Shown here one piece after another: positions 4,301 through 35,783 of a DNA stretch of 64,000 nucleotides (position 1 is the first letter of the stretch; each line of letters opens with the position of its first letter). Made by a program: the position numbers and the translations under genes. Source of the DNA: Euglena gracilis. Its lineage: Eukaryota. The stretch lies in contig CP154954.1 of NCBI GenBank assembly GCA_039621445.1, forward strand, positions 30,818,395 through 30,882,394. The letters run 5' to 3'. Below the pieces are notes generated by a model that was given only the letters and a program-made list of their open reading frames with translations, did no database searches and was not told the DNA's origin.

Positions 4301-6151
4301 CGGAGAGGAGGCCAGCAGCCAGCCTGATCGAGGACCCCAGCCACCCCCCCACCACATGAACCAGCGTGAAGGACAGTGCGGGCGCAGCCCAGCCACAGGC
4401 AAGCAGCGGCTTGCGCTATGCACTCCTCGCCCCCCTCAACCTTCCTATGTCGGTTTCGGTGAGGCACCCTGTCCTGGGTGGGGCTGGCTTGGGCGTCAGC
4501 CTGGCCGTAAGGGGGGGACGGTTCAATCGCAGCGACACCTCGGGCTCCGCACTTTGCCATTGTGAGGCCATGCCTTGCTCGCCTTGTTCGCTGCGCTGGG
4601 TTAGGAGGTCCCGCTTAGTGCCATTTTTCGCCGGAGTTGGCTGATTCCTAACTTGCCCTTCGACACCCAGAAGAAAGGAAAAGAGTTCACGAACGAAGAA
4701 GAACCGAGAAAAGAAGTCAATATCATTCAATATCCAGAAGGACACGATCCAGACGAACAGCAATTGAGAATTCAATTAACAATTTTCAATTTTGACTTCA
4801 ATGAGCAATGCAGTGGAGAAGAAATTGGGAAGTCATGGCCACGGACGTCCTGGAGCAGTTGCCGCAGAAACAGGAGAACTTGGAGATGCGGTCGACACGC
4901 GACGAACCGTGGCCGTTTTTCCCCCCTAGACCCCCACCCCAGAAATTTGCCAGCCCAAACCCCCCCCCCCCCAGTGACGGCCACGGTCCTTGGACCACTG
5001 TGGCCGGAAGGCCCAGAAGGCAAAAGTCTGCCCCAGCCCTTGATGGGCAAAAGATGGGCCAGGGGGGCCCAAATTGCTCCACAATTGAACAATCACAACC
5101 CACACATGTGGGGCATCTCCCCCAAAGGCGCCCAGTCGCCTACACAACAATTGGCCAAAGGATGGCGAGATGGAATCAAGGCCAAGGAGGGCAACACTAC
5201 AGGGGCCATGGGGGCCAGTTTTACAAACAAATCCCCTCATGAAGGGGCAGAAAAGGTCTGTCCAACCCCCCCCAATTCATCCATCACAAGAGCCCCTCTC
5301 AAGGGGAAAAGGGGGGGCCACAGCAGCCCCCCCAGATTTCAAGTGGGGTTGGAGGCCAAATCAAGGCCTGAAGGATTATGGAAGAAAATTTACACATGGA
5401 GACCTTGGAGACCAGCAGGGTGGACCCACAGTGGCCACCAAGAAGCTAAGGGGCATCATGCCCAACCAGCAGGGTGGACCCACAGTGGCCACCAAGAAGC
5501 TAAGACAGCTGCTGGAGAAATCCCCCGAGGGACCCACAGAGGCCCTCTGCCAAAAATTGGGGAAAAGGGGACCCACAGTGGTCCCTTTGATGACCCAGCC
5601 TCAGGAGGAAAAGGGACCCACAGTGGCCCTTTTGGAGGGAGGGGCAGATACCCATCCAACATTTATTTCTCAATTCCCGATCAATCAATCAAGGGGGGGA
5701 CCCACAGAGGCCCCCCTATGGTATGGCAACCAACCACATCAACATGGAGAAGACCAGATAGGCCAAACAGGGGCATTAAGCCCTATGGTATGTCTTCCAA
5801 CAACAAGATCATCCAGAGAGGTGAGCAGAGAGGGAGAGAGTGCATGCACATCCCCCCAGAAAACATTTCATTTTCCAAGGGCACAAGCCCTAGGGGACCT
5901 AGGGGTGCAATGTCCAACACCCCCAACCCAGCCCCCCCAGCATCATCTCACCCAGAAAATAAATTCAATGGAGGAGGTATGGGGAGACACCCCCCTCCAT
6001 CAAAGGTTACAAAAAAGCCTAAAATGTCCAACATCTCCACCCCGGCCCCCCCTAAATCATCTTATCCAGGAAATAAATTCAATGGGAGAAAAATGGGGAG
6101 ACACCCCCCTCCATCAAAGGCTGCAAAAAAGCTTGAAATGGTGGGCAAAAA

Positions 6152-7500
6152 ATGCCCCCCCCCCCAACAACATGTCAACTCATCAGGGATGGCATTCAAC
6201 CCCCCTGGGTAAACCCACCAAAACTGTCCACCCACCCAAAACCCAGAGCAAATTTGAACCTACCCCAAGCAGAAAAAATACTGCTGGATTACGAAAAATC
6301 TGGATCCGTAAGGAGGGTGAGGGATTCAACCACCCAGCACCTCATCCCCTGGTTTTTGATTTCAAAGCCAGAGGGGGGACAGACAAAATGGAGATTAATA
6401 AGCGATTGCAGGGAAATAAATCAAAGGTTCCAAGTGAAACCTTTCAAGCTGGATCACATCCAGCACATTTTTCCAGTTTTGGAAAAGGCCACTGGGCAGC
6501 AAAAATAGACCTGAAGGATGCCTATTTTCATATTCCAGTAAGTCCAGGCCTAAGGCCATTTTTAAGGCATCAGGTGGGGGGCAGACCTGGGAATTCCAGG
6601 CAGGCTGTTTTGGCCTGAACATAATGCCCCAAATTTTCATGTCAGTCATGAAGACATTCGAAAAGCTGTGGAGGAAAAGGGGCATCCAGGTATTTATTTA
6701 CCTGGACGACATTTTACTGGTGGCCCCAACACAAAACATCTTACAAAATCACCTGAACACAGTCGTCAGGGATTTAATCAAATCAGGGTTCAAAATCAAT
6801 GTAAAAAAGTCCACCCTGCAGCCCACCCAAATCGTAAATCATCTTGGATTTCAACTAAACTTCCAAGAGGGAAAATTACAGGTGCCCCCCCAGAAAATAA
6901 AAACAGTAAAAAATGAGCTGGGAAAAATGGTGAAAAAAGATTACATGTCAAAAAGGCAACTGGCTGCCATTTTGGGCCAAATAAGATGCAACCTTATGGC
7001 CCTGCCCTTTCTAAGGGCCTTTACGGATGCCCTGGCAGATTTTTTGGTAAAAAATTCCACAGCCCCCTGGGACTCAAAACATCCCATTTCCCAAAGAATA
7101 AAGGACCAATTAAGAGAAATAAAAATTCTGCTGGACACCTGGGGGGGCAGACCCTTCCCCCAAAGTGCAACCAGAGAGTTGCACTCAGACAGCAGTACTC
7201 ATGCCTGGGGGGGGCTGGACATCCGAACAGGCAAAATTGTGCAAGAATTTTGGAGGGAAAACTCCATTTTGCGCATAAATGTCAAAGAATTAAGTGCAGC
7301 AATAAGCACAGTTCAAAGCCTCAGCCAGCCAGGGGAAACTGTGTCCCTATCTGTGGACAATCAAGTAATTTACTATTACCTAACAAAAGGGGGGGGGGCA
7401 GAAAAGACCCTTTCAATTCCATGCTAAGACCCTTCTTCAAATGGTGCATGGAACACAACATAAACCTGCAAGTAAGATGGTCCCCTCAAAAGAATGCCTG
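6152..7500 (+). CDS. DIRS pol: reverse transcriptase + RNase H (frameshifted at homopolymers)
   Basis: Motifs WRLISDCREIN, WAAKIDLKDAYFHIPV, FGLNIMPQIF, IYLDDILL, HLGFQLN and LHSDSSTHAWGG are spread over ORFs 6152-6508, 5170-6618 and 6624-7427. Confidence 0.9.
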
Positions 7501-7824
7501 GCAGACCCCATAAGCAGATGGGAAATGGACAGGGGGGATTACTCACTGGACCCCCAACTTTTTCAATGGCTGAGGCAGCAGTTCAAAAAGTACATCAGTC
7601 TAAAAACAGACCTTTTTGCCTCACCAGGCAACAAAAAACTGCCACAATTTGTGGCCAGGTGGCCCCACTGGGGAGCCACAGCAGTGGATGCATTACAATG
7701 TCCACTGGACAACATGGGGGATCTTTATGCAAACCCCCCCTGGTCTGTAATCCAAAAGTTTCTCCCCAGATTGAAAATGTTTCCACAGACCAAAGTTTTG
7801 ATGGTCACCCCCTACTGGGACTGA
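7500..7824 (+). CDS. DIRS-type N6-adenine methyltransferase-like domain at the pol C-terminus
   Basis: TDLFASPGNKKLPQF...VDAL...LYANPPWSVI; a DLFA motif plus NPPW is typical of the MT-like domain of DIRS1 elements. Confidence 0.8.
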
Positions 7825-7929
7825 GCCACATGGTGGCCCCAGTTAATAAAAATGAAAGTTCCAGGGACCCCCTGCCTGAAAATCACCCCCTACATGGGTA
7901 TGTTCACCAATTGCAGGGGGGAAGAAATG

Positions 7930-8640
7930 CCACCCCCCAGGTGGCCCCTCCTTTGCATGATTTGCTCAGGCAAATTTTGGAGGGGAAACAAGTAAAAAAT
8001 TCATCCATTAAAGATTTCCTGGGAAGAAACCCCAGTTTGAAAAGGTACCAAAGTGCCTTTACGCTTTTATGGGTAATTTTGGACAAAATGGGGGTACCCC
8101 CCCCTGAAGCCACCACTGACCAAGTGGTTGACGCTTTAATCCAACTGTTTCAATTTTCAAAGGCCCAAGCACGCAATGCATACAGCGCTATGCTATTGAT
8201 TCCTGGCTTTGGAGGCCTAAAGTTCCATGCCATGTTGGCACCTTATAAAAGGCTTTGGAACCAAAACCTGGAGAAATATGGGGCATTCTGGGAGCGAGTT
8301 GTCTCCATTCCCCAGTGCCCACAAATCAGTCCCTTTCATTTAATGTTGTCTTATGTGGCAGCAACACGTTTCTTTATGAAACCTGGGGGCCCCCTTTTAA
8401 TTACGTTAAAACCCCCTACAGAGCCATTAAGGCAGACACCATTGCTTCTATCACCAAAGAATTTTTGACCAAACAGGGGGTACCCCCCCAGGTTTGCGGA
8501 CCCCACTCCACCAGAGGGGCAGGGGTTGGATTGCTCAAAAAATTGGGTCTTTCTGCCCAAGAAGTTTGTGAAATTGGTCAATGGAAGGGGGTGGAGGCTT
8601 TTACAGCCCATTATCAAAGACTTGGTGCCCAAGGTTCTTT
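7930..8640 (+). pseudogene. DIRS tyrosine recombinase, frameshifted and apparently internally deleted
   Basis: C-terminal catalytic boxes are present (GPHSTRGAG...IGQWKGVEAFTAHYQR). No box-I Arg region is visible between YGAFW and ERVV. Frameshift near 8418. Confidence 0.8.
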
Positions 8641-8678
8641 GGAGAATGCCCTGGCCCCCCTTTTTTCAGTGCACAATC

Positions 8679-8785
8679 TGGCCTCACAATGGCAAAGTGC
8701 GGAGCCCGAGGTGTCTCGTACTCCCTCGAGGCAGACCGAGAAGGGAGGAAGGGACACCGAGGGCGAAGCACAAAGACATTGTGAG
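8679..8785. repeat. Internal complementary region (ICR) of the DIRS element
   Basis: Its reverse complement reads ...gggagtacgag-acacctcggg..., i.e. the right terminus joined to the left terminus (circle-junction sequence). Confidence 0.85.
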
Positions 8786-11700
8786 CCCGACCCCCCCACC
8801 CATTTAAGAAAGTTTGTCTTCAAACGCCCTCTGTCAGAAGATGGGGGCCAGGGGGGGGGAGGTGGGGGGGGGACCCCCCCAGGCAAAGAAACAGCGCCAC
8901 GGTCGCCACGTCGGAGACAAAGCAGCCAACTCCGGCGAGGCGGCACTAAGCGGGACCTCCTAACCCAGCGCAGCGAACAATCACACAGCACCGCCGGCGA
9001 GCAAGGCATGGCCTCACAATGTCTTTGTGCTTCGCCCTCGGTGTCCCTTCCTCCCTTCTCGGTCTGCCTCGAGGGAGTACGAGTCCTGCCCCAGGGTTTT
9101 TCTTCGAGGGGTTCGATTCTTTTTTTTGTGGGGTCGTCAACCTGTTGCGTGGTGCGTCGTTTGAACCGGTTTCATCTCCAGATTGCGTTTCTTGTTTGTT
9201 GAAGTCTGGGTTCAAAATTGAAATTTCTCGGAAGTTTGCTGATGAGTTTCTCGTTTAGTGAGCGTGAAAAAGAAGTGAGAATGGACCGCTTAAAAAAAAA
9301 CAATCGCCAGTAGGTCCGATCTTGGGACAGTCCTGTGCAAGGAAGGCCCGATTTCTCACAAACGTGCCTCTGCTTTAGGGACTCCAGGGGCCGAGGGCAC
9401 ATTTCTGGTTGGCAAAGACACAAAACAATTCCAGCAAACCCCAAAAAATCAACTAAGAAAGACAGAAATAGGAGTTATGGCACAGCCCTCATCGATGGAT
9501 ATGTCGTCATGCATAACTGGATAAAAGGTTGGAAAAAATTTGTTTGGGTGGTCAGAGAAAGGTGATAGGGAGAGGACAGCATAGCATACAGGATGCGCGA
9601 AAGATGCGATACGGACAGGAAAGAGCGCTACTCTTCCAGAATGTCCCGAAAAAGGCACAGGAGCGCGCAAACGGCGGGTGTGGGTCGAAAAAATGGAAAT
9701 TAATCCCTTTGCCATCCACCCGCAAATACCCGTTCACTTGGAGAAAATGGGACCAAGGCGCAGAATTTCCTTGGTTGGGGTACCCAACGGGGTCCCACCC
9801 ACGCGAACGCAACGCTCAACAATCCGGCACAGGCAATCACCCACACCGCTGGGCAAACCAGCACATCGCTTGTTGGTCCCCCAAAGACGTACCAATTTCA
9901 GCACATGGGCATTTTCACAGATTTTTCGGTGCCCACTTTTTGTTTGGATTTTCCCCAAACATCCCGTCCCTGCAGGTTGCGCGGCCTAATCAACCGTCCA
10001 CGTTGAGGCACAGGACCCCTGCCGACTGGAAGAACGCTCGCTGGGCATCGAACTGCTGGCAGCGGCCGACTGAAGCCATCGGTCCACAGGTTACTTTGTC
10101 TGGGCACAACCCCGCCCCACCTCCTCCTGATTGACAACTGCCCACGACCCCCCCCCCCTCCCAGCCAGGTTATTGCTTGTTATGGCTGGCCAGTGGACCC
10201 CGAGGGGGTCGGGTCCACTGGCTGGCCATTTTACAACACATATAAAAAAAATGGACCAGACCCCCCCCTCCTGGCTCGAGGGAAGAGGACACCTCCGGGG
10301 TCCCCTCCTGACTGGAAAAAAAATTGCCACCCAAAAGAGAGGGACCTGCATCATTTGTCGATGTTGTGACCCAGGGAATAGGCCCAATTTTGATGATTTT
10401 TCAGGCTGTGCACTAGGCTTGAAAAAAAGTTCAAACCTCTGGGTTTCAACTCTGGGAGACGCGAATTTCCCCCCAAAAAGGGCCAAAACCCCCGTTGTGA
10501 ATGGAACAGGCTTCTTTTTACCAACCCGGGGGGAGGGGGGTGCCTTGCGCTCTGGGGTGCCTGCCCATAGTAGGCACCCCATGGGGGGGGGGTCGGTTTC
10601 GGCCCCCGGTGCCTGTTGACCCAGCCAAATTTTCCTTTGAAAATGGCCCATTTCCGGGCCCCGGTGCCTTCGGATTGCACCACCCACCCAAAATCCTCCC
10701 CCCCCCCCCCCCCCGCTGGGACCTCGGGGGGTCGAAAATACCCCCCCCCCGCCTGCCCATAGCCCCCCCAGAGGGGGGGGGGGAGGGTGCGCATTTCCTA
10801 AAAAAGAAGCCTGGATTTTTGAAACCCAACAAACCTCCACCCTTCTCATCGAATACATCAAAAAACTCCCCGAATAGTTCGTAATTGTTCAGGGGGCAAA
10901 TGTGGTTCCGCCCCCCGACGAAAGAACATCGGAAATGCCAGTGTGTTCCCTCCACAGGCGGCCACATGGTCGGGTCTGGGAGCTGCTGGCACAGGCCGGG
11001 TTGCCCACCACGGCGCAGAGGTCATACCGGGCAGGCCGGGGAATGGGCCAGTGCTCCACCGCCCAGCCGCTGTGCAGAACTGTGGGTTCGCCGTCCAATG
11101 CAACACGGAATGCACACAGGCACTGCATGGACGAAAGGACACACGTTTGGGCAGAGGTGCCTTCGGAGACGGCCAAGATGCATCACGTTGATCCCTTTGA
11201 CCATAATTCGGGCTTGGGCGAATGACACGTGTATTACAAAGGGATCGGACGTTTCCGAATGCTGATCATGCCGCTCTTCCTGGAATCGAAGCATCATTGT
11301 TATTCCGTTTGGGCAGTCGGCACAACTCCGCAAAAGTGGAAACACGCAGACCGGGACGCCAAATTGGGTTCTTGTGGCCTAAATTCCAAAGTGGTGCCTC
11401 TTCCACCTTGTCCAAGACACGCCAATTTTCAGGGAATGGGTCGTTGATATGGGGGGGGGGGTGCCAACACCACCGCAATTAAATAAAAAAACCTCAGGTG
11501 GATTTCCAGAAAATTGTTGACACAGGGGGTGTCTCAACGACACGGTGTGTCTTGGACAATACCGAAAGGTGACTTGGGGGTCTCTCACACTTTTTTCTCA
11601 AAGGACAATTGAAAGCCGAGAAGGAAACTCCTTGAGCACTGCCCCAGCCCAAAATCTTCCAGCGAAAGCCCAAGGTCACTGAGGACGCTGTCAGGGTGGG

Positions 11701-12459
11701 ACAAACCACCTTGAGCCAGAACCACCAACCACCTTTTGGCAGAAATTCTGATGAAATCATTCTTCAATACAAAAATTGGTGAATTGATGTTCTCAAGAGA
11801 TAAATCACACAAAAATGATATCACCCGTTTAAAGAATACCGAACAATGATGCTGAAAAGCACAAATCAACAGAAAAATAGCAGAAGAAATCCTTCATGTG
11901 GCTTCTAATCAGAACATCTAAAAAATCAGACTTTTGGCACTTTGTCTTGGTGGCGGTTGTGGTTTCTTTTGTCGACATCTGGAAAGGCATCGATGAGAGC
12001 TTAAAAAGCAGAATCCGCAACATCACAAACCCACGTCCTCCCCAAATAGTTGTGGTGGCAAGTTGGGCAGAATGCGAGGGGGTGACAACCAGAGGGGTGG
12101 GGGTGAGCCCCATTCATTTCTGAGGGGTGCAGACTCAACTAGAGGCAAAATCATCAACATGTATCCACATGCAAAGAACCGTCTCTGTGTTGGGGTCCAA
12201 CAACACAGAGTCAATTCTTTGCCTCTGGATACACATTGTTGAATTTATGCTGACATCCCCCAATGGAAACGCAGAGCCGCTACAGGCTTAGTGCCAATAC
12301 AAAGCCGCACGCTTCCGATGCCCAAAGCACGCCCGCACTTCAATTAAGTTAGGGGGTGGGGCCTGCGCAACCTCCTCAAAGGCGCTGGCTTCCAATGCCC
12401 CAAAATACAGCGATTTGATGGGACACCGCAGCACGGGTCTGGGGTGGTGGCGCAGTCCC

Positions 12460-12955
12460 GCCCTGGGGGCGGGAGAGGTCTGGCGTGGGGCCGGCGCTGC
12501 TGGGGCACAGCAGGGCCGGGTCCGCCCCCGTCAACTCTGCCACGGCGCGCGCGTAGCGGAAGAGGCAATTCTCAGCGAGGTAGCGGTGCCGCCACCAGGC
12601 TTCTTTTTAAGGCCCCAGGGGGGGGGGGTCCCCCCCACCCACCCCGGGGGGCGCGGGGCCCCCCCCCGGGGGGGGGGGGGGGGGCGGGACCCCCCCCAAA
12701 ATCGGGCCCGCTAAAGGCAATTTCCAAAAAATTTCGGCGCTTCGCGCCGAAAAGGTATACCCAGCGCCTCCGGCGCGGGACCCCCCCCCCCCAGGGGGGG
12801 GGTCCGGCCCGGACCCCCCCCCCCACCCCCCCCCCCCCCCCCCCCCGGGGGGGGGGGGGGGTCTGCTGACTTAAAAAGAAGCCTGGCCGCCACCGCCCCA
12901 CCGCCCACAGCTGCTGCAGCGCCGGGCGACCCGACACTGGCCGAAGGGGCCCCAG
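12460..12955 (-). CDS. Putative exon pair split by a MITE-intron (…ALQQLWAVGRWR|HRYLAENCLFRYARAVAELTGADPALLC…)
   Basis: GC3-rich open frame that becomes continuous after removing 12591-12888. Outer exon boundaries are approximate. Confidence 0.6.
12596..12885. mobile_element. hAT-type MITE (perfect 16-bp TIR, 8-bp TSD) that matches a nonconventional intron
   Basis: TIR CAGGCTTCTTTTTAAG / CTTAAAAAGAAGCCTG; TSD gccgccac at 12588-12595 and 12886-12893. Confidence 0.92.
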
Positions 12956-13053
12956 ATCACACCCGCCCTGCCCCCAGCCACCCACCAAAACCCACTTCCC
13001 CCCTCATCTGACAGGTTGCAAGTACTGGGGACCCCTGACAAGCTCTCAAATGT

Positions 13054-13113
<60 letters not shown>
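13054..13113. repeat. (CA)n microsatellite
   Basis: About 30 CA units. Confidence 0.95.
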
Positions 13114-13119
<6 letters not shown>

Positions 13120-14499
13120 TAATTGGGATTGGTGTTGGGCCACGCCTCAGGCGAAGGAGTCGCGGAGGCTTCACGACGTGCCATCCGGGGGCACAGGGCA
13201 CTTGAAAACGGAGAACAACCGCAAATACGGCGCGAAGACTGCCACATTCACACTTTGAAACGGGCCAAGCATGCAGCAAAAGTGGCCGGTACCAACCCTG
13301 GGAGCCTTCGGCGGCCCTTAAGGAAATCAAAAAAAAAAAAGGGTCAACTTCGGGATAAAAAGTGATTTCTGGCATCCTTGGACTGTCACCCATTCGCCCA
13401 AAACGTCAACAAAATGTGTTTTTTTTTGGCCTCTCCCATCCCGGCGGACCACCCTGCCCGGGAGAGGCTGGAACTGTTGGGCTGGGGGAGAATCGGTGTT
13501 GGATCCCTGCTGCAGATTGAGTCCCGAAGGACCTTGCAAGCGAACCAGGGGGTCTGACGGATCAAGAAGGCAATCCCCACCAAAAAAAGTTACGACAGGA
13601 AAACCTGATTGCAACACACCTTAGCGCTTGGGTGGTCCCTCTGTCTGTATGTGAAATATTCTCCCTGCTTTGGAGCTGGGCGGGACTCACGGGTGGATGG
13701 GAAGACCCTTGCGAAGCGCCGGCGGCTGGCTGCACATCCGTTCAAATCCATTCACTGGCTGGGACAACGCAAACACGCAGGTCCACACGCTTGAGTCTTC
13801 GCGTGCCACGCACATGCGGTCCGGCGTGTGCACACATGCACATGGGAGTGTGGCGTCAGCCACTGCCGGGCCGGGGAGATGGGTGGGGGGCCCGCGTCTG
13901 TCAGCCAGTCATCGGCGCAAACGAAGACGGAGGGCGCGTCGCCCGATGGCCGGATGGAGTTGACGACGGCTCGACAGCCCCTGGCTGTCGTGCAGGACGA
14001 CTCCCCCTCACGTCGACGTTCCCAAAAATGTGAATTCCGGCGCCGAGCCCGACAGTGTCAACTTTGGTGGGGAGGAGAGGGGACAGAGGTTGGCAGCCCC
14101 CGCGATGTGGAATGGGATGGAGGTCGGGATGCAGACAGGGGCCGCGCGGCGTGGGGGTCAAAAAGCCCGTTGGCGAGCACCACCACCCGCTGCAGCGGGG
14201 AGGACGTTGCCGTGGGGGCTCCGGCTGGGTTGGAGTGTAGGGGTGGCACTGCGATTCTGGAATGGCCCCGACCACAACCTTGGGAACTGGACACTGCTCC
14301 TCAACTTGCTCAAGGCGAAGGCCAGAGGATGCAGGACGGACTAAGCCAGTCCGTGAACGGCTTGCACAGATATCAAATTGTCAGCCCTCTGAAACACACA
14401 AAAAAAACTGGTTTCAAATGTCCTGCTGGCACCAACAAGGAAAAGCGAAAAGCGAAGGCGAACACAGACTGCACCGGAGATCCCGACCCCCAGGAACAG

Positions 14500-17400
14500 G
14501 GTGTTGGTCTTCGGCCCCTTCGCGGGGCCCCCAGCGCTGCCCGCGGGATGGCGAGGCGCTCCGCCTCCGGGATGCGGGCCAGGATGTGGCGGGCCTTCGT
14601 GGGGCTGGTGGACACCGCCTGGCCGATGCCGTGGTGGCCGAGCAGCGCCGCCCCGACGTCCCGCAGCTTCGTCAACACGGGGCCCGCCGTGGCCTGCACG
14701 TGCAGCACGGGGGCAGGCCAGCTCCGGGCCGGGTGGCAGGGCTGGGCCTTGCGGGGTCCTTGCCCGGGGGGGGGGGGGTGGAATTACACCAGAGTTGCTC
14801 ACCCGGCCAGGCGGAGCAACAAAAGAGTACTGGTGTAAGGGGTGCCTGGCCACTCACCACACAGCAATTTGGGCAGAAGCGAAGATAGCGCCGGCCATAA
14901 ACAGACAAGAAGTTTTAGTGCGACTGAGGGGGGAAGTTGGTGCGGCAGGGGCGCCACCTCGGCACGGGGTGTGGCAGGGCTCCCTCCTCCTCCTGGGTCG
15001 GTCTCCGCACTGCTGCTTCCCGCTGTGGGGATGCCTGGCATGGAAACGCCTGTCACGGATCCCCCCCCCCCGGCTGTATCGGTAATGGGTCCTGAGGCAC
15101 CACCACCTGGCGCGCAGGGTCCTGATGCGGGGGCCGTACGGCATATTGCTGGCCTGGGCGTAGGGGAAATGGGCCCACGCCGTGCGGATGGCGACGTTCT
15201 GGGCGATGGCCTCCTCTGGAGGGGGTTGGCGCAGAGACCAGCAGGCTCCGGTCCGGTCGCCCCCCCCCCCCAACTGCACTGCACCCGCCCAGAGGTTGTT
15301 TTTTTAAGACCCACACCCTGCCTCCGGTGGCATACCCACTCGGCCTGACTTCCGCTGTGGGTGGGCTCAGCCGGGCACCCACCCACCCCCCCGGGTCACA
15401 AAACATAAAAAAAAAATCACTGCGCCCACCCTGCTGTGCTGTCCAGAAGGGGGGGGGGGGCTCGACGGCCCCAACCCCGGCGGCAGTCTCCCGGCGGGCG
15501 GCGTTGGTGCCCTTCAGGCGGTCGTAGAGCTCCTTCGACTGCAGCGCCACCGTGTCGAGGTGGATGACGCACGAGTACCGGTTGCTGCCGGAGGCCGGCG
15601 GACGTTCTGCGGAGGACCACAGCGGAGTCACGTTCGGACAAATTTGTTTTTACCGACCCCCTTTTTACCGACCGAGGGGGGTCTCAAGCCAGTCAGTCAC
15701 CCTCCTGGGTTAGCCATTGACTAGGTGATTGTTTGGTCATGTTCAATTGGGAGGCGCACGTCCACCACAACCAATCCAAAAGGATACAATCGCTTGCATC
15801 ACCCGTGGGGCGTGCGAAAATTCCACTGAACGGTGTGCTCTCTCTCCCATCGACCCCCTCCTGGCAACAATGGTCCCGACCACTTCCCACCGGGGGGGGG
15901 GGGTCGGAGGGGGGGCACCCCCGGCCCCCGCCCTTTGCCAACGTCGTCCCACGTCATGTCGGCGGAGCGCAGCAGCGCCTCGTACTCCGCCTCGGAGATG
16001 AACGCGCGGGGGTCCAGCAGGCCGCGGTCGAACAGCACCACGACGGGCCGCCCGGTGGCGCGGGCGAACTGCTCCGCGTAGCGGATGAGGCTGTCCTCCG
16101 AGTGGGGGCACGGCGGCGGCGGGGGAGATGGACGGGTCCAGGAATTGGTCGGGGGAAACACATACATGGAACAAGCGCAAAAATGCACTGTCTTCACATC
16201 TTTTTGCTACAAATCGGGATAATGTATGATGTACATGATATGATGATATCGGGGACTTGCTGACATACGGAAATATGGACAGGGGTCCAGGCATACCATA
16301 TCATCACGCATCAACGAAGCCAGCCGCCACACCACCCTGGTTGCCGCAAAAAATGGAACATCTCTCGCTGCCACACCACTCTGCAGGAGGGCAGTCCTCC
16401 GCAACAGGAGCCTGACAAGAATCGGGCGGATGCAATGTGCCAGTGGCACCCTGTTGCCATGCTGAGGCAGAGGCGAAGGGAATCCACCTGGACTTGTGCA
16501 TTGGCGCCGAATGCCCATCCCCGCCCCAATCCCTGGGGTGGTGAGGCGTCCAGCAGAACCAGAACAAGCAAAGAAAAAAAAAACGGTGCAGGTGGGGAGG
16601 AATTGAGAAACACTCTGCTCTTGGTTGGGCGAGTCTATGCGAAGGGCTCCCCTCGACGCAGGGCCTCGTTGTTGGCGGGGAACTCAGTCCCCTGGCGAGA
16701 CCACGAGGTGGCCTTCTCGGTGCAATGGGCGGCCTCGCTGCCTGTGCGCCACGAGCCCACTGGTTGCTTGTGGGATCGAAAATGGACGTGTGCCGAATTG
16801 CCCGAAAACGAATGCCCAATGCAACTCAGCCTTGGTAAAGGGAGCGACACAAAGAGGCTGTTAAGGGCAGCGGGAACCAAACCACCCTGCATAAGGAAAA
16901 CCTCCCGCACGCTGAAGGAATTGAACCGAAAATATCAGCACCCCGAGAAACACCGGAAAGGTGGTGTGCGGGAGGGTGATCGGACCCCCCATACCCACCA
17001 GGGTAGGGATTTCGACCCCCCGCAATCCATATGGTCCACACAGCCTGGCCAGGGGGAGGATGGAAAAAGTATTCCTCGGAGCCGGGGTTATTTCTCAGTT
17101 TCGTTTCCAGGCTTCCAGTGTCATGTGAAGCTTCTCCTTCCAGAGGAGCTGACTGCGCGGGCGGCCCCACCCCGGAGGCAGCGGGGCGGCGGAACACGGC
17201 GTAGCCGTTCTCCTCCAACAGGGTCCGCAGGTACTGCAGGCTGGAGCTCTTGCCCGCTGCGGGCCCCCCGGTCGGGGGCGGCGGACCACATCGCCGGGAC
17301 ACACTGCCGGGGGGGGGGGGCACTCGCACGGTCGAGGAACCCTCTGGCCCGGGTTGACGCCGGGGCAGAGAGGCGTCATTGTTTCGCATGGATGGGTCCG

Positions 17401-17915
17401 CGTCAGGCACGCCTGGTCCGCATCTGTCGCGGACCCCGTTTGAAACGTCCGCCAACAGACACGAAGCAGGGAGGCAGCCACTGTCCCCAGACACAGCACC
17501 TGGGCACTGGCATGGAAGGGGTGTCTTCAGCGGCTGGGGTTGCTTACGCGCACGTGCATACAATTAGGGGTCTTTGAGGAAAGGTGTCCGTGTTGTGCAG
17601 GGGGGTGTTCAAACCTCATTGTGCCTCCACCCTCGATTTTGAAAACGCCCAGCTTTATGAAAATGGCACTGCAGTCAGTCGGTCTGATTTTGTGAGAAAA
17701 CGAGAAATGAGTATTCGCACACAAACACACCACACACACCATACACACGTCGAACTGCATGTACAAGTGGTTGTGTTGGGTATTATAACAAAAGACTGAA
17801 AGAGAATAAGCATCCTGAGATAAGATTGTGGCCCGCCGCTCAAAACCACCAAATGTAGCCGACCAGTGCAGCTGCTGTTTGATTCTGGCCGCTCCAGCAC
17901 GGTCACCAGGCTTGC
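14500..17915 (-). CDS. Multi-exon AAA_28 / TTD14-like P-loop NTPase domain
   Basis: Exons in order: LHLVVLSGG (~17832-17915), PAAGKSSSLQYLRTLLEENGYAVF (~17195-17263), TEKATSWSRQGTEFP (~16660-16725), QVDSLRLCLSM (~16457-16490), EDSLIRYAEQ…VLFDRGLLDPRAF (~15940-16098), NRYSCVIHLDTVA…NAARRETA (~15481-15590), EEAIAQNVAIRTAWAHFPY (~15155-15216), LHVQATAGPVLTKL (~14510-14710). The motif order matches the GGP-x-xGK / PExAT / DRGxxD / RYxxVxHL / AWxxHP family pattern. Confidence 0.75.
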
Positions 17916-18249
17916 ATGCTGACAAGGCCACTGGGCGGCTTGGGGGAAGGGGGCTCTCGTTTCGTTTGTCCTGTGTCCCAACCATGGAGGTATGGAGGTG
18001 AGGTCATGCCAATCTCCCCAAGAACCAACACCTCTAAGCAACAAAATTCTCTTTGAGGATCTGGCTTGGCTGGGAGGGGGCCACCCGACCCGACCTCAGG
18101 GGGATCAGGGGGACCAAATTATTTAAAGGGGCCTTTTTGGTTCCAACTGTTTTCAAAATTGATGAACAGAAAGACTGGAAATGAAACGACACGCCAAATA
18201 AGAATACCAATACCATCAGATAAACTCAATCGACAATATCGCGGAATTC

Positions 18250-21200
18250 CCACGTATGAAGCGGCAGTGATGCCGACACTTTTTGTTGACTTCGAAGCGG
18301 CGGATTCCTCGGCTGCCCTCTTCGCTTCGACCTCCCCTGCCGGAAGGGAGGCAGCTTCACCCAGCCCCCCCCCCCCCAAGGCGCCTTGCGGGCGGGAGAG
18401 CCCCGCGGTGCCGCGGGCCGCCCGGCCAGCGGCCGGCGCGGGGGCCAGGCATCGCCAGGGGCAGCGCAGGCCCATCAGGGCGCATGGGCCCCACCGCGTA
18501 GGGGGGCGGCAGGCACCGCGTCACGGGGCCATGGGGCTGGGGCTGGGCGCGAAAGCAACGTGTCCCCGTCTGCCGTCGGCCAACAGCAATGGAAGGGGGG
18601 CAAAAAAAACCAAACAAAAGTGTGCGAGAAGAAATTTTTTTCAACGAGCAACTGTGTGGGGCGACAGGCATTCATTGCATTTGACGCACTGTACTTTTGC
18701 TTGTCGGGTGGCGGCAAATTATTCAAAAATAATAACAAGATTTAATTATTCTGGAACTGAGCCTTTCCCCTGTGACGTTTTTGCAAGCATGCAACGTTGG
18801 AAAGCACCTCTGAAAAAAAAAATAACGAAAATCCCGTGTCTGAGGACCGGAAAAGATGGATAAGGACCAAGGGGGGGTTGCTTTGACAAAGGAAAAAACC
18901 TTACTCCAAAAAAATCCAGCGCTTCGCGGCGAAAAATATCTGGTTTCTGGGGCTCACTGTTGAACTTACTGGCACGTGGATGGAAAAAAAATCAACAATA
19001 TCTCACCAAATCAGACACCAGAAATTTCTGAAATATATAAATTTTCGAGGAATTTATCTTAAAAATGCAAACAAAATAATAAGCCTCCTGAGAAGATGAC
19101 CTTCAAATCAGGGTAAAGACCGGGGTGGTGGTGTTTTGACAAGGGTGGTGCTTATTTCCTTGCTTTAGACAAGAGGCAGGGGGGGGGGAAATGCGCCGGA
19201 CGGCCCACGGAAAAAATGCGCAAAAATGCGCAAAAAAATGCGCAAAAAATGCGCTGAGTTTGTGACATTCCTAAGGGAAAAAGGACTTGGAAAAATTTCC
19301 AACAATAAACCCAAAATTAAACCAAAATCACCAAAAAGAGCTGAAATGAAGGCATTTTGGCCAAAAAATGCATGACCAAGGTGTCACTCTCCGTTCACCA
19401 TAACCAACAATGTCAGCCATGGTGCCCCTTACTTGTGACCAGGGGAGTGGGAGTCCCGCCTTGGTTACGTGTCAATGTGGGGTCTCTGAAACCCCTAGTG
19501 TCCTCATCGTCATTGGATGAGTACCCACACCTCATCACCCAAGGGTTTTCTCTTGAGGCCGGTCCCTTGGGTGGAAAAAAAGTGCGAAAATGGGTTCGTT
19601 GGTTACAGAAATGGGCCAGTTGATCGTGGGCAAAATTCGGTGAGCATGTGATTTGGGTGGAAAATGTGCAAAAATGGCAAAATGTGCAAAATTGGGCAAA
19701 AAAATGCGCAAAAATGCGCAAAAATGGAAAATGTGCAAAATTGGGCAAAAAAAATGCCCAAAAAATGCCCCAAAAATGGAAAATGTGCAAAAATGGGGGG
19801 GGGGGAAATGTGCAAAAAATGCGCAAAAATGCGCATTTTTGAAAAATTGACAAAAATGCGCAAAAATGCGCAAAAATGCGGAAAAATGCGCAGCGCATTC
19901 CCCCCCCCCCTGCAAGAGGGAACACAAAAAAAATCGTGCTTGACGGCTTGAGCCCACCCCTACTTGCATGTCCTCTGCAAGCTGGAGTCCACCAAAATTG
20001 ACATATTGGCCTCCCCCAGGGATGTATGGGAAGCGAGGGGTCTGGACCCCCCACCCAAGATGGAGTTGGACCCCCCCTCCCACCTCAAAACTGAAGAGGG
20101 CCAGGAAAATTTTCGGTTTTGCGGACGGGCAAACGCCCGGAAACTAGACCGAAATTGTTGCTGAATTTTTCTTCAAAAATGAATACAAAAATGCTTTTTT
20201 GACACATTCTTTTTGTGGAAAACAACAGAAATCAAAAAATGTGCATGCAATATGCTCAAAAATGAGGAAAAAAAGACTTTTTTTTTAAAATCCACTTTCA
20301 TTGCGCGCTGGAAGAAAATCTTCGCTAATTTTTTTATTTTTGGAATCTGTCAAGAAGAGGGGGCACCCCCTCCCAGCATCTAGGGAGAGGGTGGTCTGGA
20401 CGTCCCCCCCCCCCCTACCACCTTACCCCTCCCAGAGGGGGGGGGGGTTGGGACAGGTTTTGTGTACTGCTGAGCTCTTTACGTGCCTGATGGTGCCATG
20501 CCGTAGCAGATGTCTGAGGCATGTAACTGCCAGGGCGGACCTTCGGCCCAACCTGGCAGCCCGGCCCAGCCCACCTCAATGTGGCAAACCGGAGGAAGCG
20601 GCCCATCCCAGCAATGGCGGCCCAGCGGCCCGGCGGCTCGGCCCAGCCCGTTTCCAAAACATCTCAGAAATGAAGCAAAATTAAAGGAAATGTCCTACGA
20701 CCTAAAATAAAGCCCTTGTTGGTCCTATCCAATGGTACTTTGATTTCCCCGCAACTCCAAGGTGAGCCCGAGTTCTGGCCATTTTGAAGCCGTTTGGCTC
20801 CACATCTGTACTGTTTTGGGTTCTACCCCCCCCCCTTTTCCCCAGTGGTAAACTTTGCTCTTGCTCTAAAAATGTAAAAGCTCAGTGAACCCCCCCAACC
20901 CCCACTAACACCAACCTCAAAACCGAAGTGCTTCCCATCTGTCTGAGTCCTCCCCTTATTGACCAGAGTTCATGGCACATTTTAAAAGAAAATTAACTTT
21001 ATTGGCAGCAAACAGGGATGATGGCCTCATTGGGCCGCACAATTTTGGAGCGGGAATTGATTTGCTGCCCATACTCCTGTGTCCTCATCGCAGTGCAGTC
21101 GCTGCAGCCCTCTCCCCAGACAATATGGCACCGTGGGACAAGAATTATATACAAAGTAAAATGACTTTTGCAACAAGAACCACCCATGAAAATGATTGCA

Positions 21201-27200: not shown

Positions 27201-30200
27201 TTGTGGCTCCCGTCTGACACTTGGAGACGCACGCATCGTGGGAAGCAGGGTTCCCACAGAGAGCAGAGCCAGGCTTCTTCTTCTTCTTACCAACCCCCGG
27301 GGGTGCCTTGTGCTTTGGGGTGCCTGCCCCAGGCCGTTTTTTGTATCAACCCCCAGGGGGGGGATCCGGAGTGCCTGTGAGTGCCTGCCCAGGCAGGCAC
27401 CCCCCCCCCCCCCCCGGGGGGGTCGGATTTCGGCCTGTGCCCAGGCGCATTCCTGTGAAAATACGCCATTTTTGGCTCCTTCGGCGCCGGGGTCTGTGCC
27501 AGGGCACTTTTGGCCGTGTGCCCTACCCCCCCACCCCGGGGGTACCCCCCGGGGGGGGGGTCAGATTGGGAGTGCCTTGGAGTGCCTGTCCAGGCAGGCC
27601 CCCCCTCCCCCCCTGGGGTGGGGTCGGCACCCGACTAAAATACAGCCCTGGTGCCTGCCCATAGCAGGCGCCCCTCCAGGGGGGTGCGACTTTCCTTAAA
27701 CAGAAGCCTGGGCAGAGCCCCTCGCTCGATAAACCTGAAGCGCACTTCCAAACCAGGCAAACCAGGGAAAATTGCATGCAGGTGTTGGTGAAAATGGGAG
27801 ACCCCCCCAGCAGCCACCCGACGTGGCGAGGCGAAGATCCCAAGGCATGGCGACTTGGAGCATTGTCATCCTGCTGTGCGAAATTGGACAATGGCAAGCG
27901 GACAGAAAAGAAACCACGACGCCGTATCTGCTTGGGAGAGGCAACTGGGGAAGCCACACATATAAAACCCCTTTCAACCCGAACACTTCACACTGTGCCA
28001 AAAAAAGTCAAAAAATCTGACCCCACACTGATGCAGCCAATTATGTTCCGCATTGAGTGTTTTGAACTTATGCCCCTTTGGCAGGATGATTATGGGAGGT
28101 GCCTTCCACAGCCGATTTCTTAACCGAGGTGTAACGATGGGGATGGATCGTAAGCCCCGGCCACTCCTTGGGAGGGCCCCGGACGTGGGGCGGTGGGGGC
28201 TCCAGTGGACCCCGCGGGCTCGCGCCCCCAGAGTTGGTCCACACAGCGCTCCTCTCCTTCTGGCCAGGGGATGACTTTAGGGCCCCCGGGGGGGGGGTCC
28301 AGCCTCCGGCTGGCAAAAAGGCTGCTGGCTGGACCCCCCGGGGTATAGGGGGGGGGGGAGGGGGGCTGGAGGGGGCTGGGCTGGGTCGACGAAAAACAAA
28401 AAAAATTTAAATCATTTTGTCTTTTGACATTTTGGTGGATGGAGCTAGATGAAGGCTGGGGGCTGTGATGGAGGAGGCTATGATCAGGCACCTATGGTCA
28501 CTTCCCATTTTGGTGCTCTGGTCGGCCCTGGTCGGCCCTGGTCGGCCCTGGTTGGCAAATAGTCGGCCATAGGTGGGGGTATCCTGCACAGAAAAAATGT
28601 GAGGGATGGAATGATTTTCTGAATTGTCTCGCCAAGATCAAAAGGAAGTGCCCCATAAGGCCTCCATTTGCACCCCAAAAGCAACCAAAAAGACCTAAAA
28701 TGGCTTGAAATAACCAAAAATTACCCAAAAACGCCAACAAAATCCACAAAAGATTGTGAAAAATGACCCAAAATTACCAAAAGGGCACAAAATGGCAAAA
28801 AAAATGCTCAGATTGACCCAAATTAGCCCAATATTTGCCAAATCAGTGACAAATAGCCCCCAAATTAGCAAAAACTGGTCCATAATGGCCAAAATGGGTG
28901 TAAAACTGGAGATTTGTGGGAAAATTATCCAAAAATGGGTTTATTTCTTCAAAATATACAAAAAAAAGCATCGCCCAGCAACACCCTGCATCGCCCAGCA
29001 TCGCCCAGCATCGGAACCCCACCTCTGGTCTCCAAAAATCCAGCATCACCCAGCATCGCCCAGCATCGCCCTGCATCGCCCAGCATCATCAGAGGTGCTT
29101 GTTCCAGAGGGAAAGCTGCCGAATTCCTTCATCCATTCCCCTTCGGTCGGCCAACCACATGCAAGTCGGCCCTGGTCGGCCCTGGTCGGCCCTGGTCGGA
29201 CCCCCCCCCTACGGGGGGGGGGGGGGGTCCTGAAAATCATAGTCGACCCTGGTCGGCCCTGGTCGGCCGTAGGTGCCTGGCTATGATGAGGGAAAAAAAT
29301 GCAGGGATGGGTGAGCTGGGCAGCTCAGTTGGCTGGCCCGGCCTTCGGCCGGCTGGCCCGACCTCCGGCCGGGCTGGACCCGACTTTATTTCACTCGACC
29401 CCCCCGGGGGATCCCAGCCCGAATTTGGGCTGCTGGCTGGATTTGAGCTGCTGGCTGGCTGGACCCCCCTGGGGGTAGGGTACCCTCCGGCTTAAGAAAT
29501 CCCCTGCTTCTGGCACCTCCCGTCCGCCGGTTCACTGTTGGCATTGGTGCCGCTGGCGGTTGGTTTCCGTTTGTTTGCGGCGGTCGGGCCAGTTTCACAG
29601 TCGACTGCGAAATAGGCATTGCCGAACCGGACGACATTCGGGGACCTCTCAGGAGTGGGCCACCGGAGGCCATGGGCAAGGGAGGCTGCGCGGAGGAGGC
29701 CTGTGGTTGTGGCTGAGAGGCCGTTGAGCGGCGGCCACATTGCTGGAGGTGGTGGCAGCCCTTCCCCGAAACGAGGCCCTCCACAGCGCTCAAGGTGTCA
29801 AAATCCACAGGAAGCAGGGGTTTTCTTAAGGACGCCCGGGGGGGGGGTGCTGCAGGGAGGCTGGAAAAAGGTGCTGGCTGGACACCCCCCCCCCCCATGG
29901 TTGGACCCGGGGTGGGGGGTCCAGGGGGGGGGTTTGGCCGGTTGGGAGCTGGCCCCGGCGGATACCCCAAAAATGCCCAAAGGAGGTGAAGACCCAAAAA
30001 CCATCCCAAAATGTCATTTTTGGCCATTCTTTACATCCCTTTTCAAAAAAGTTTCGGTTTGCACGAAACTTGTTTTTCGGTCCAGCCCGGCTTTGCCGGG
30101 CTGGCCCGACCTTTATTTCAGTGGACCCCCCCGGGGGGGAGGGGGTCCGCAAGCGTGGCTGGGAGGCTGGCTGGCTGGAACCCCCCGGCCGGCTTAAGAA

Positions 30201-33200: not shown

Positions 33201-35783
33201 CTTTTTTTCAAAAAAAACTGTCAAAAATTATAATTATACCGACCCATTATCGTCCATTCTGGAAGGAACGCCCTGTGTGGGACACACACCTGGGGCATGG
33301 CGACAGCCGCGGCGACGGAAATGGTCACAAAACAGTTGCAGTGGGTGACACTGGGGCCATTGGGGTCTGAGGAGGTCACCGCAGGAGAATTGTTGCCCCG
33401 GATTGGGGATGCTCGTATTTTGCACCGCATCCAGCATGTGCACCGCGTGCACCGTGTCCACTGCACCGTGCACACCGCGTGGCATTGCGTGACAAAAATT
33501 AGGTACAGACCTTTTTTTTTTTTTCGAAATCCAGTAGCCAAAAAATCAATTGTCAACTTTTGAACTTTTCTTAACCAATTCAACGATGGTTGGCTCTTCT
33601 TGAAACATTCAGCGGGGTGTTCTTTTGGTCATCTCCAGCCTTTTTTGGCCACTTCAGCATTTTGGCCAAATGGAACAGACCCGCTGGATCGAAAATGCCA
33701 AGACCCATCAATTTAATACTGGATTCAACAAAATTGCATCTTCACTGATGCCCAAAATCTTCAAGAAAATAAAGATCCATGAGATTGAAGGTAACCCCCC
33801 CCAAGGATAAGACCCGGGCCTAATTTTCGAGTCCGTTGCTGAAAATATCCAGAGGGTCTTACTTTTTAGGGGGAGGTCTTATTTTTGGATTATTTCTTGA
33901 CCGACGCGGGCTTCTGGGGTCCTTTTGGAAACTCAAATTCTGTTTGCGGTGATTCACGCCGAAAATAGTGGAAAGCCCTTCGAGGGGCACCTCCTCAGCC
34001 TGAACCCATCCTGGGGAGGTCCATGCCATGCACCTAACCCCTGAGCCATGAGGACCATGCACCTAACCCCTACACCCAACCTACACTCAAGGTCAATAAC
34101 CTTAAAAAAAATCTCTGGATGAAGGTTGGCATGGCCAAAAGGGGGGAGCCCAACATTCGCCCCCTCCCCCCTCCTGAGTGTCGTCTGCCCTGACCTGCCG
34201 AGGAAGGCGTTTAATTTTGCCCCAGGGCAAGGAGATGTTCAGTGGGAAGGAACCCGCCAAACCAAACGGACCTTATCTTGGATTCAATGGCTATCCAGAG
34301 CCTCGACACCAGAATGTCTGGACGCAGTGCACTTGGTCGTCATGGCATGGGGAAAATCATTAAATTAAATCATTGGATAAATAATGGTGTAAAGAAAAAA
34401 GAATTTAAAGAAACAAATCAGAAACAAGCAATTGAGAACAAATGAGGCGGACAAAAAATCCAAAGGTGCAGATCGGCTGGCATTGACTGAATGGTTTATG
34501 AGGGGGGAGGCGGGCTATTCAGAATCACCCAGACATCGGACATGGTCAAATACAAATAACTAGAAAGATATGGTCGGATGGGATCACAGAAGGAAATCCT
34601 GCTCTCCTGACCAACTCCACATTCAGAGGGCATCCCGGAGGTCAGGGTGCTATAAATAGACCAGGGGGGCACAGGCATGAATGCGAAGGTCAGACAATAC
34701 AAGGGGACTTTAGGGCAGAAAAGCTGTTGATGCTCAGGTGCCAGGGAAGAGACCACACAAAGAAAACAAGCAGTGCGCATCATCAGACGGAGGGAACGGG
34801 ACTCAGGTTAGGCAGAAATAATCCGACACCCCCCATTTTGCAGCAACAACCCCGAATGCGAGTGACCACCTGCGAGTGACACCGAGCGGGGGTTGACAGC
34901 GCCGGGGGCAGGGTTTTTTTTTTAAGACCGGGGGGGGGAGGGGGGGAGGGGGTCCGCACCCACCCACCCAACCCCTGGGGTGGGGCCCCCCCGGGGGACC
35001 CACCCACTTCTTGCCCGAAAATGGCCAAAATGCTAAAAATAGCACCTTTTCAAAATTTTCGGCGCCTTTGGTGCCGAAAAAGATATACCCACCAGCCCCC
35101 CCCCCCGGGGGGGCCAAGAGACCCCCCCCCCCCCCCCCAGGGGAGGGGGTCCAAGACTAAAAAAAACCCCTGGCCCGGGGCACAACACAAAGGGGACGCC
35201 CGGCCAGCCCCAGCGAGGGTGGCGAGGCGGGGCCAATATGGCAGAGGGCGGGCGTGGCGGCGGGGGTTCACTTCGCAACAGCAGGATTCACGGCGGGCTC
35301 CGCGGGCCCAGAGATGGGGCTGGCGGGGAGGGTGTGGGCCGCGGGCAGGGGGGAGAGGAGTGGCTTTGGGCAATCCATCCCCCCAAGCCGACTTCCGCGA
35401 AGAGGTCGACAGGCTGTGAAAATGACAGGCCGCACCCCACGGCGGGGGAGTGCTTCTGCGATGGCGGCGGTTTGCCTCAGAGATGGAGGGGGTGTTCTTC
35501 TGAGACCGGCGATGCGCAGAAAATGCATACGGCACTGGTGGCCGATGGCGCCGTACGCTGTTTGGGGGAGGCCCCAACGCCACAGTTTGCCACGGACGAA
35601 CGCAGAGGGAAGCCCCACAGACCCCTTGGGTGTGGCGCAGAGACGCTCTCCCCCCTGGCCGGGGGCCCGGAGGTGGGGCTGGTCGGGCGGTCCGACAGCC
35701 ACCGCACGAAGTCGCCGAGCTTCGAGCCCTCCCGGCCGTTGGTGGGGCTGAGCGGGTACGTGCTGAGGTGCGACAGCGGCACC
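18250..35783 (-). CDS. Scattered exons of a large protein of unknown function, probably continuous with the AAA_28 exons
   Basis: GC3-rich open segments: VPLSHLSTYP…DFVRWLSDRP (35690-35783), TGVLLHRRFEAL… (31800-31910), ALQVLLRSSRG…RLRFQDEVQ (30760-30885), RYELVVLADAG (26600-26700), RDGLLDSAFHMAWY (26010-26140), QFEVDSFVKCSVG (25500-25591), VLAEGSAATVDVD (24190-24290), RLIFVSPDDDAAV (21545-21605), EVEAKRAAEESAAS (18255-18420). Exact gene structure is not resolved. Confidence 0.5.
19177..19912. mobile_element. MITE with CAGGGG… TIRs, 7-bp TSD and AAAAATGCGC subterminal repeats (copy 1)
   Basis: CAG(G)nAAATGCGC … GCGCATT(C)nTG, flanked by caagagg on both sides. Shares its internal sequence with 62892-63629. 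Confidence 0.85.
23378..23840. repeat. MITE-like dispersed repeat with CCCCCCCAAATATAAAGCC subterminal arrays (relatives at ~219-640, ~33790-33890 and 58048-58516)
   Basis: Same motif family (variant CCCCCCAAAAATAAGACC), with an inverted copy at the distal end of the element. Confidence 0.65.
26795..27075. repeat. AT-rich low-complexity tract (ATAAAC-like and AT repeats)
   Basis: Seen directly in the sequence. Confidence 0.9.
27270..27710. mobile_element. hAT-type MITE, 8-bp TSD (7/8 match); candidate intron
   Basis: CAGGCTTCT … AGAAGCCTG; flanks agcagagc / ggcagagc. Confidence 0.8.
28265..29506. mobile_element. hAT-type MITE with a perfect 8-bp TSD, containing a nested MITE; candidate intron
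   Basis: CAGGGGAT … ATCCCCTG; TSD cttctggc at 28257-28264 and 29507-29514. Confidence 0.88.
28485..29279. mobile_element. Nested hAT-type MITE with GGTCGGCCCT and GCATCGCCCA decamer repeats
   Basis: TIR CAGGCACCTA / TAGGTGCCTG; perfect TSD gctatgat. Confidence 0.9.
29815..30207. mobile_element. hAT-type MITE with a decayed TSD; candidate intron 29810-30210
   Basis: CAGGGGTTTTCTTAAG / CTTAAGAAAACCCCG; flanks acaggaag / atgggaac. Confidence 0.75.
32613..33066. mobile_element. hAT-type MITE, perfect 8-bp TSD
   Basis: CAGGGGTATTCTTGAG … CTTAAGAAAATCCCGG; TSD gctgccgg. Internal sequence is similar to 29815-30207. Confidence 0.85.
34909..35172. mobile_element. hAT-type MITE, 8-bp TSD (7/8 match)
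   Basis: CAGGGTTTTTT … AAAAAACCCCTG; flanks gccggggg / gcccgggg. Confidence 0.8.

Follow-up and report, generated by a model that had tools for sequence, protein, structure and literature searches.

A MITE in exon 12 of an expressed AAA_28 gene of Euglena gracilis, a probable newborn nonconventional intron

In this study, we analysed a window of 64,000 nucleotides of Euglena gracilis DNA (the whole stretch under examination, to which all coordinates refer) and found coding exon 12 of a gene for an AAA_28 protein to be split by a small non-autonomous transposable element. Together with its target-site duplication, the element displays the full set of cis features of Euglena nonconventional introns. 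The reading that we favour, and hold to be probable, is that a MITE recently inserted into exon 12 of this expressed gene and constitutes a newborn nonconventional intron, whose removal from the transcript is predicted to leave no scar. How euglenid nonconventional introns arose and how they are removed are questions that have awaited an answer since the 1990s; as late as 2025 the origin was described as unclear, a MITE source being no more than suspected (PMC12501133). To these questions the locus contributes an identifiable transposon family, a dated and polymorphic exon insertion, an expressed host gene, and the rule that intron spacers of 3 and 5 nt add up to the length of the duplication.

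The focal MITE, 290 bp long and unstranded, occupies positions 12596-12885. Its composition is 76% G+C, with many homopolymer runs of G and of C that reach up to 21 nt. It starts with CAG, finishes with CTG and is bounded by perfect 16-bp terminal inverted repeats: the 5′ repeat CAGGCTTCTTTTTAAG (12596-12611, plus strand) is complementary at 16/16 positions to 12870-12885, where the 3′ repeat CTTAAAAAGAAGCCTG (plus strand) is its exact reverse complement. Outside these lies the duplicated target site GCCGCCAC, the left copy (12588-12595) and the right copy (12886-12893), both unstranded, being identical at 8/8 positions; with one duplicate, the element measures 298 bp. Direct reading thus upholds the perfect CAG...CTG inverted repeats and the 8-bp duplication described in the initial annotation. 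These repeats and this duplication, along with the small size and the lack of coding capacity (no protein families were found in the ORFs overlapping the element), are the hallmarks of a MITE. At up to 2 mismatches, the focal 16-mer occurs 5 times in the 64-kb window against 0.02 expected, a number reached by 0/100 shuffles. The terminal repeat is not among the 25 longest inverted repeats listed for the window, because internal poly-G/poly-C runs crowd that list. As minus-strand RNA, the element folds with a minimum free energy of -264.7 kcal/mol (z -5.9), and its two ends are paired in both the minimum-free-energy and the centroid fold.

Long homopolymers are error-prone, and a contig of the DNA run X14, described below, is without the element; both would fit an assembly artefact of the source genome at this site. 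We regard such an artefact as extremely improbable, as it would not yield perfect inverted repeats enclosed by an equally perfect duplication of 8 bp. Moreover, 14 DNA runs contain 0.69-0.82 of the words sampled from 12300-13100, which exceeds the share that the flanks alone would provide, although other copies of the family could supply some of these words.

The family is represented in the window by three copies with differing flanks, as expected of a multi-copy MITE. The second copy (10507-10813, 307 bp, unstranded) lies in intron 14 of the same host gene; its terminal repeats depart from the focal 16-mer at 2 positions and 1 position, respectively, and its flanking 8-mers agree at 3/8 positions. 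The third (27270-27710, 441 bp, unstranded) is situated outside the host gene, between AGCAGAGC and GGCAGAGC, which agree at 7/8. In their interiors the second and third copies are alike, the focal copy being more divergent. Sixteen contigs of X14 break exactly at 10507, the end of the second copy, and there are therefore many family copies with other flanks. When the whole window was scanned for inverted ends of 12 nt, without prescribing a motif and with low-complexity sequence filtered out, 1154 pairs were left, 5 of them with 8/8 flanking repeats. One of these (8732-9066) was dropped, its 8-mer CCTCGAGG being palindromic and inside a longer inverted repeat. The remaining elements with an 8/8 duplication (4/4) all start with CAG and end with CTG: the focal element and three others with clean 8/8 duplications, at 28485-29279 (GCTATGAT), 36102-37330 (CTGCCCCC) and 49315-51026 (1712 bp; GAGGCAGG). 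The terminal inverted repeats differ in sequence among these four, which therefore represent several families of one build, such that a single 64-kb window holds at least four element families of this kind. Two more CAG...CTG elements have 7/8 flanks (35346-35657 and 1585-2032), and overall the window contains about one CAG...CTG element per 10-15 kb.

Repeats of 8 nt might also arise without transposition, through repair of a double-strand break that captures filler DNA, which is how those at a newly gained gapC intron of E. agilis were explained (PMC4770533). For the present locus, we consider this route very unlikely. The perfect 16-bp inverted ends of the insert are shared with two other copies at unrelated sites, one of them with 7/8 flanks, and three unrelated CAG...CTG elements carry clean 8/8 duplications, a uniformity of length that is the mark of a transposase.

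As to the class of transposon, the focal element is probably hAT-like, judging by the length of its duplication (8 bp), its CAG/CTG termini and a weak lead to a BED finger. Duplications of 8 bp, the length found in hAT elements, are intact (8/8) at the focal element and three others and stand at 7/8 at one family copy. The hAT terminal motif is YARNG; the focal terminus CAGGC fits it at 4/5 positions, and other elements of the window begin with CAGGG. The hAT target preference, nTnnnnAn, was not seen: of the 10 half-sites in the five duplications that were read, 3 conform to it. Among the 232 ORFs of at least 110 aa in the window, Pfam detected no hAT domain, returning one reverse transcriptase, one SPRY domain and one weak match. 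Within the 1712-bp element, a minus-strand ORF of 230 aa (50244-50933) has a C-x2-C...H-C stretch, and its nearest protein-atlas clusters are BED zinc-finger (score 0.91, with recognition below threshold and hence weak); it may be the transposase remnant of an autonomous relative. The designation "hAT-type" given at the outset is thus backed by the duplication length and the termini, while the transposase was not found among these ORFs and the target preference does not agree.

The host gene (9990-18475, minus strand) encodes an AAA_28 (PF13521) P-loop protein in 15 transcript exons, separated by 14 non-GT-AG introns. A protein search with a segment of the window identified the E. gracilis protein EG_transcript_8976 of eukprot (445 aa, PF13521; hereafter P0004), and tblastn with P0004 placed the start codon at 18475, the end of the last codon at 9993 and the stop at 9990-9992. 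P0004 crosses the insertion site uninterrupted, as ...WAVGRW|RHRYLAENCLF..., the wider junction reading ...WAVGRWRHRYLAENCLF... / ...LQQLWAVGRWRHRYLAENCLFRYARAV... The upstream half of exon 12 (12889-12919, minus strand; ...LQQLWAVGRW) corresponds to about residues 340-350, with a start that slides over 9 protein-equivalent positions, and the downstream half (12469-12590, minus strand; RHRYLAENCLF...PDLSR) to about residues 350-390. After removal of the 14 introns and of the 298 nt, the window gives a 1338-nt open frame of 445 codons, identical to P0004 at 439/445 residues, as expected of DNA from E. gracilis or an extremely close relative. None of the 6 differences falls in residues 340-390; at 6/445, they point to P0004 coming from another allele or strain than the window. 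Thus, the element does sit inside a coding exon, as the initial annotation had proposed: the transcript protein spans the site and the frame is intact once the insert is taken out. Were the element retained, by our computation the transcript would gain 298 nt, the frame would shift and the native last 95 residues would be replaced.

Base composition agrees with this placement. The exon part 12505-12603 has GC1/2/3 of 0.70/0.55/0.88, in keeping with the minus-strand GC3-rich frame noted initially, and the whole coding sequence has 0.69/0.52/0.88; the other exons of the window (SPRY, DEAH helicase) lie near 0.9 for GC3 and near 0.5 for GC2. A scan for this signature returned a chain of minus-strand segments at 17.3-14.5 kb, plus 12505-12603 beside the element. 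Non-coding flanks had been suggested by flat GC1/2/3 values (0.73/0.64/0.75), low RNA depth and a 19-bp indel of X14 at 12447, and were ruled out by the mapping of P0004 across the site and by the open frame identical to it at 439/445 residues. The flat values belong to the whole stop-to-stop frame and result from its taking in intron sequence, while the indel lies within intron 12.

Expression was assessed by mapping reads of three RNA runs and the one DNA run X14, all from one species, over 9116-17815. Across 16 single-copy bins of 290 nt, RNA depth in the three RNA runs correlates with exon content (rho 0.80-0.82, p ~1e-4), and host-gene bins without exons have zero or near-zero RNA depth. 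In the run X21, the bins of the two exon 12 halves are ~4 and 0.9 reads deep, with ~6-10 reads over exon parts. Just beyond the stop codon, RNA also covers 9406-9695, probably a portion of the 3′ untranslated region.

The initial annotation had called the insertion young and had proposed a search for an empty-site allele. Such an allele is present in the DNA of X14, where a contig of 2170 nt (depth 75.9) runs through 10741-12587 and then directly into 12886-13042. Exactly 298 nt are missing, one GCCGCCAC is kept and there are no extra letters, which amounts to an insertion polymorphism with a precise empty site, as is characteristic of MITEs. Four introns nearby are present in the contig, and X14 has an even depth of ~80-120 over unique sequence; the contig therefore represents genomic DNA, not spliced RNA. 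As X14 contigs drop alternative alleles, it has no bearing on the filled allele in that run; several X14 sites look heterozygous, at about one third to two thirds of depth. A multi-copy family and an exact empty site within the same species together make the insertion young and polymorphic, which supports the age first assigned to it.

To place the element among euglenid introns, we compared it with the code 5′-N3CDG...CH'GN5-6|R, which was defined in E. gracilis by mutagenesis and synthetic introns, fully synthetic 50-bp sequences that follow it being spliced (PMC12501133). For each intron, all donor/acceptor pairs that reproduce P0004 were enumerated. Because of the 8-bp duplication, the element has 10 protein-equivalent registers, and only one of them, 12888..12591, has CAG at +4..+6 and CTG at -8..-6, followed by a purine. 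This register defines a predicted nonconventional intron of 298 nt (12591-12888, minus strand), GGC-CAG...CTG-GTGGC, in which a 3-nt spacer (GGC) precedes CAG, a 5-nt spacer (GTGGC) follows CTG, and the first downstream exon base is G, at 12590 on the minus strand. GT/GC-AG borders are found in 0/10 registers, so that the way in which introners are removed, through GT/GC-AG by the spliceosome, does not apply here. The stem of the element is paired at 16/16 positions, as compared with 10-13/16 in older code-fitting introns. In addition, the element stands between the coding halves of an exon in a transcribed gene, both of which are covered by RNA, and its host is a euglenid that possesses such introns, with 0/14 introns of the host gene being GT/GC-AG in any register. 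The splice coordinates proposed in the initial annotation, 12888 to 12591, are thus the sole code-fitting choice among the 10, and the pre-insertion sequence that it expected removal to restore matches the transcript protein. Its arithmetic, 3 + 5 = 8, accounts for why the spacers sum to 8, but not for why they are split 3/5 and not, for example, 4/4.

The code itself is not the whole story, since only 4/14 introns of the host gene fit it fully in one register (two as CGG-CCG, two as CAG-CTG), the others fitting in part. The long G and C runs of the element are also unlike the cassettes tested in PMC12501133. In the six older code-fitting introns of the window, traces of former duplications were not significant, as the flanking 8-mers match at 20/48 positions versus 76/240 in cross-intron controls (p = 0.093).

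Other introns of the host gene have features of their own. The junction of intron 11 (13876-12918) slides over 9 protein-equivalent positions because two 8-nt sequences, CCCGGCCC and CCCGGCGC, form a direct repeat that agrees at 7/8, and the CAG/CTG code is out of register there; this intron may be an older or different insertion. Intron 8, with the ends CAGGCCAG...CTGGCCTG, contains at 14779-14915 a very high-copy repeat (X14 word depth ~455,000 versus ~90 in unique DNA), which has a sharp left boundary at 14779 in DNA contigs and RNA reads alike. Intron 12 includes a near-palindromic hairpin (12149-12247) that on either strand matches microRNA precursors weakly and below threshold (best score 30.5 bits, the gathering threshold being 97), probably another small inverted-repeat element.

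Whether the filled allele is spliced bears on the main competing explanation, in which the insertion is a null allele: the element would be poorly or not at all removed, intact transcripts would come from empty alleles or other copies, and the loss would be tolerated thanks to those copies. The empty-site allele in DNA is in line with this account, as are the differences between P0004 and the window allele (6/445 residues) and the heterozygous-looking sites of X14, which suggest several haplotypes. Further, the 298-nt RNA joint, 12889>12590, is not among the best 15 of 197 joints by support. That absence is uninformative, the list being filled by poly-G artefacts and DNA contigs; within the element, most of the RNA depth comes from homopolymer reads and says nothing about retention. 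Against a null allele, the element has all the cis requirements that were sufficient for synthetic splicing in E. gracilis (PMC12501133), and the window allele, the insertion aside, keeps a fully open frame of 445 codons. On balance we judge a null allele unlikely, though clearly more plausible than break repair or an assembly artefact. The claim that the element is a nonconventional intron stands for all cis features of N3-CAG...CTG-N5|R, with the RNA joint not among the best 15 of 197. Scar-free mRNA, including that behind P0004, is no proof of splicing, because an empty DNA allele yields identical mRNA. This also carries a practical warning, in that a 298-nt "spliced" RT-PCR product proves splicing only if the empty allele has been excluded.

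On the favoured reading, that of a newborn intron, a non-autonomous transposon with CAG...CTG ends and 8-bp duplications recently inserted into exon 12, where it is still polymorphic. In the transcript of the filled allele, the inverted-repeat stem would bring the two copies of the duplicate together, and the nonconventional splicing machinery would then cut at a distance of 3 nt upstream of CAG and of 5 nt downstream of CTG. Loss of 290 + 8 = 298 nt would restore the reading frame without a scar; with the frame restored, the insertion would be nearly neutral, and a newborn intron. Given that 3 + 5 equals the duplication length, it follows that the mRNA would be freed of every such transposon lying in a transcribed exon, provided that the purine condition holds: in the sense strand, base six of the duplication would have to be a purine, and not every site would qualify. 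With its symmetric ends, the element should be removable in either orientation. If true, such erasure from mRNA would explain the spread of these introns.

From here, a broader proposal can be made: that euglenid nonconventional introns as a class derive from CAG...CTG transposons with 8-bp duplications, that their splicing is an RNA-level eraser, and that their gain is ongoing in E. gracilis. We put this forward tentatively, as a possibility in which we have distinctly less confidence than in the reading of the single locus. The eraser would measure 3 nt and 5 nt from the stem, such that exactly one duplicate would leave with the element, and the exon 12 insertion would be a newborn intron still segregating. 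The rule makes a genome-wide prediction for several hundred thousand annotated nonconventional introns, and the hypothesis of a transposon origin is now open to direct experiments.

A MITE origin of nonconventional introns has been proposed since 2013 (PMC3935182) and the proposal has been repeated (PMC6221363, PMC11170887, PMC12621601); in a review of 2024 the introns are depicted as carrying inverted repeats plus repeats that resemble duplications (PMC11282704), while the E. gracilis genome papers, as far as their accounts extend, give bulk repeat classes only (PMC6366073, PMC11252322, PMC12455990). The present locus, which the initial annotation took to be a direct and recent example, is not the first. 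Intron 4 of gapC in E. agilis ACOI 323, which is nonconventional, occurs in one strain, is absent in others and is flanked by 8-nt direct repeats, precedes it (Milanowski et al. 2016, PMC4770533). The two cases resemble each other in their strain-variable presence and their 8-nt direct repeats; the gapC intron was explained by double-strand-break repair and tied to no transposon family (PMC4770533). Unlike gapC intron 4, the focal insert has perfect 16-bp terminal inverted repeats, sister copies and an empty site in DNA, and its removal from RNA is predicted. In the literature outside supplements, we came upon no link between nonconventional introns and either hAT, the rule 3 + 5 = 8 or an identified transposon family; an 8-nt limit may be visible in the sliding-distance data of PMC12501133 and in PMC4770533 (Table S3). 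A strain-specific intron with 8-nt repeats having already been reported in 2016, what is new here is a clear case tied to an identifiable transposon family.

With the nonconventional introns of Euglena, the element shares the absence of GT-AG, CAG at +4..+6, CTG at -8..-6, the stem and the purine (PMC12501133). Those published are old and were annotated from RNA (PMC12501133), whereas the focal one is a dated, polymorphic insertion with an intact duplication. Introners, known from Micromonas, dinoflagellates and others, are also MITE-like: their inverted repeats and duplications supply splice signals, and insertions in exons are spliced out (PMC11282704), as we propose here. They depend, however, on the spliceosome and GT/GC-AG, with duplications of 3-5 nt in the cases described (PMC11282704). 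The MITE-derived introns of Fritillaria borealis come close in their non-GT-AG ends, inverted repeats, duplications and species-specific positions, but differ in that a modified spliceosome removes them and that they end in AG-AC or AG-AT (PMC11282704). The focal element, in contrast to introners, lacks GT-AG and would be removed through the separate euglenid pathway, its 8-bp duplication being divided 3/5. It would behave like an introner without belonging to that class. An older parallel is maize Ds (hAT), reportedly described by Giroux et al. 1994 as a de novo intron, an exon insertion removed from RNA. Its removal is said to proceed through cryptic spliceosomal sites, imprecisely and not scar-free. 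The likeness lies in the insertion of a hAT element, probable for the focal case, into an exon, with removal from RNA being predicted for the focal element.

The remainder of the window contains parts of two further genes. Four short exons at 47498-48506 (minus strand) make up the 5′ portion of a DEAH-box helicase gene, with PDB matches to DHX35, DHX9 and MLE; a PDB search with exon 3 gave no match. In intron 3 of this gene (47731-47598), which fits the nonconventional code, any GT-AG reading would break the usual spacing of the motifs. The code also suits intron 1 (48405-48272), for which a GT-AG reading is possible too; its flanking 8-mers agree at 5/8 and its ends are paired at 13/16, resembling the focal inverted repeat. 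Intron 2 is GT-AG. Further helicase exons, from motif II onward, were not found downstream, where a satellite begins. Two exons of a SPRY protein (53297-53075 and ~52530-52366, minus strand; nearest solved structure the DDX1 SPRY domain, E 7.7e-4) are separated by a GT-AG intron, and both acceptors have cytosine-rich pyrimidine tracts. A DEAD-box motif scan and a scan for downstream SPRY exons were without matches, and no helicase exons were found near the SPRY exons.

Repetitive sequence accounts for other features of the window. From ~38476 to 47300, ORF coordinates repeat every 661 nt over ~9 kb, in sequence of 62% G+C with a strong skew of G over C; this looks like a long tandem array, missed by Tandem Repeats Finder because its period exceeds 500. 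No Rfam family reached its gathering threshold in the window, and 9000-18000 gave only 5 sub-threshold matches. Homopolymer runs of at least 9 nt number 151; those of G (70) and of C (45) together make up 115 of them. Many of these G/C runs lie inside MITE-like elements, as hairpins of adjacent G and C runs, and they draw many poly-G reads in the RNA runs, which mask true coverage. At 4605-9202 (plus strand), there is a decayed LINE-like retroelement with RVT_1 in 6438-7424 (E 1.3e-14); the protein-atlas neighbours of its reverse-transcriptase ORF are generic RVT_1 clusters, mostly molluscan. The ratio of observed to expected CpG is 0.10 in 6001-8000, as compared with 0.5-0.8 across most of the remaining window.
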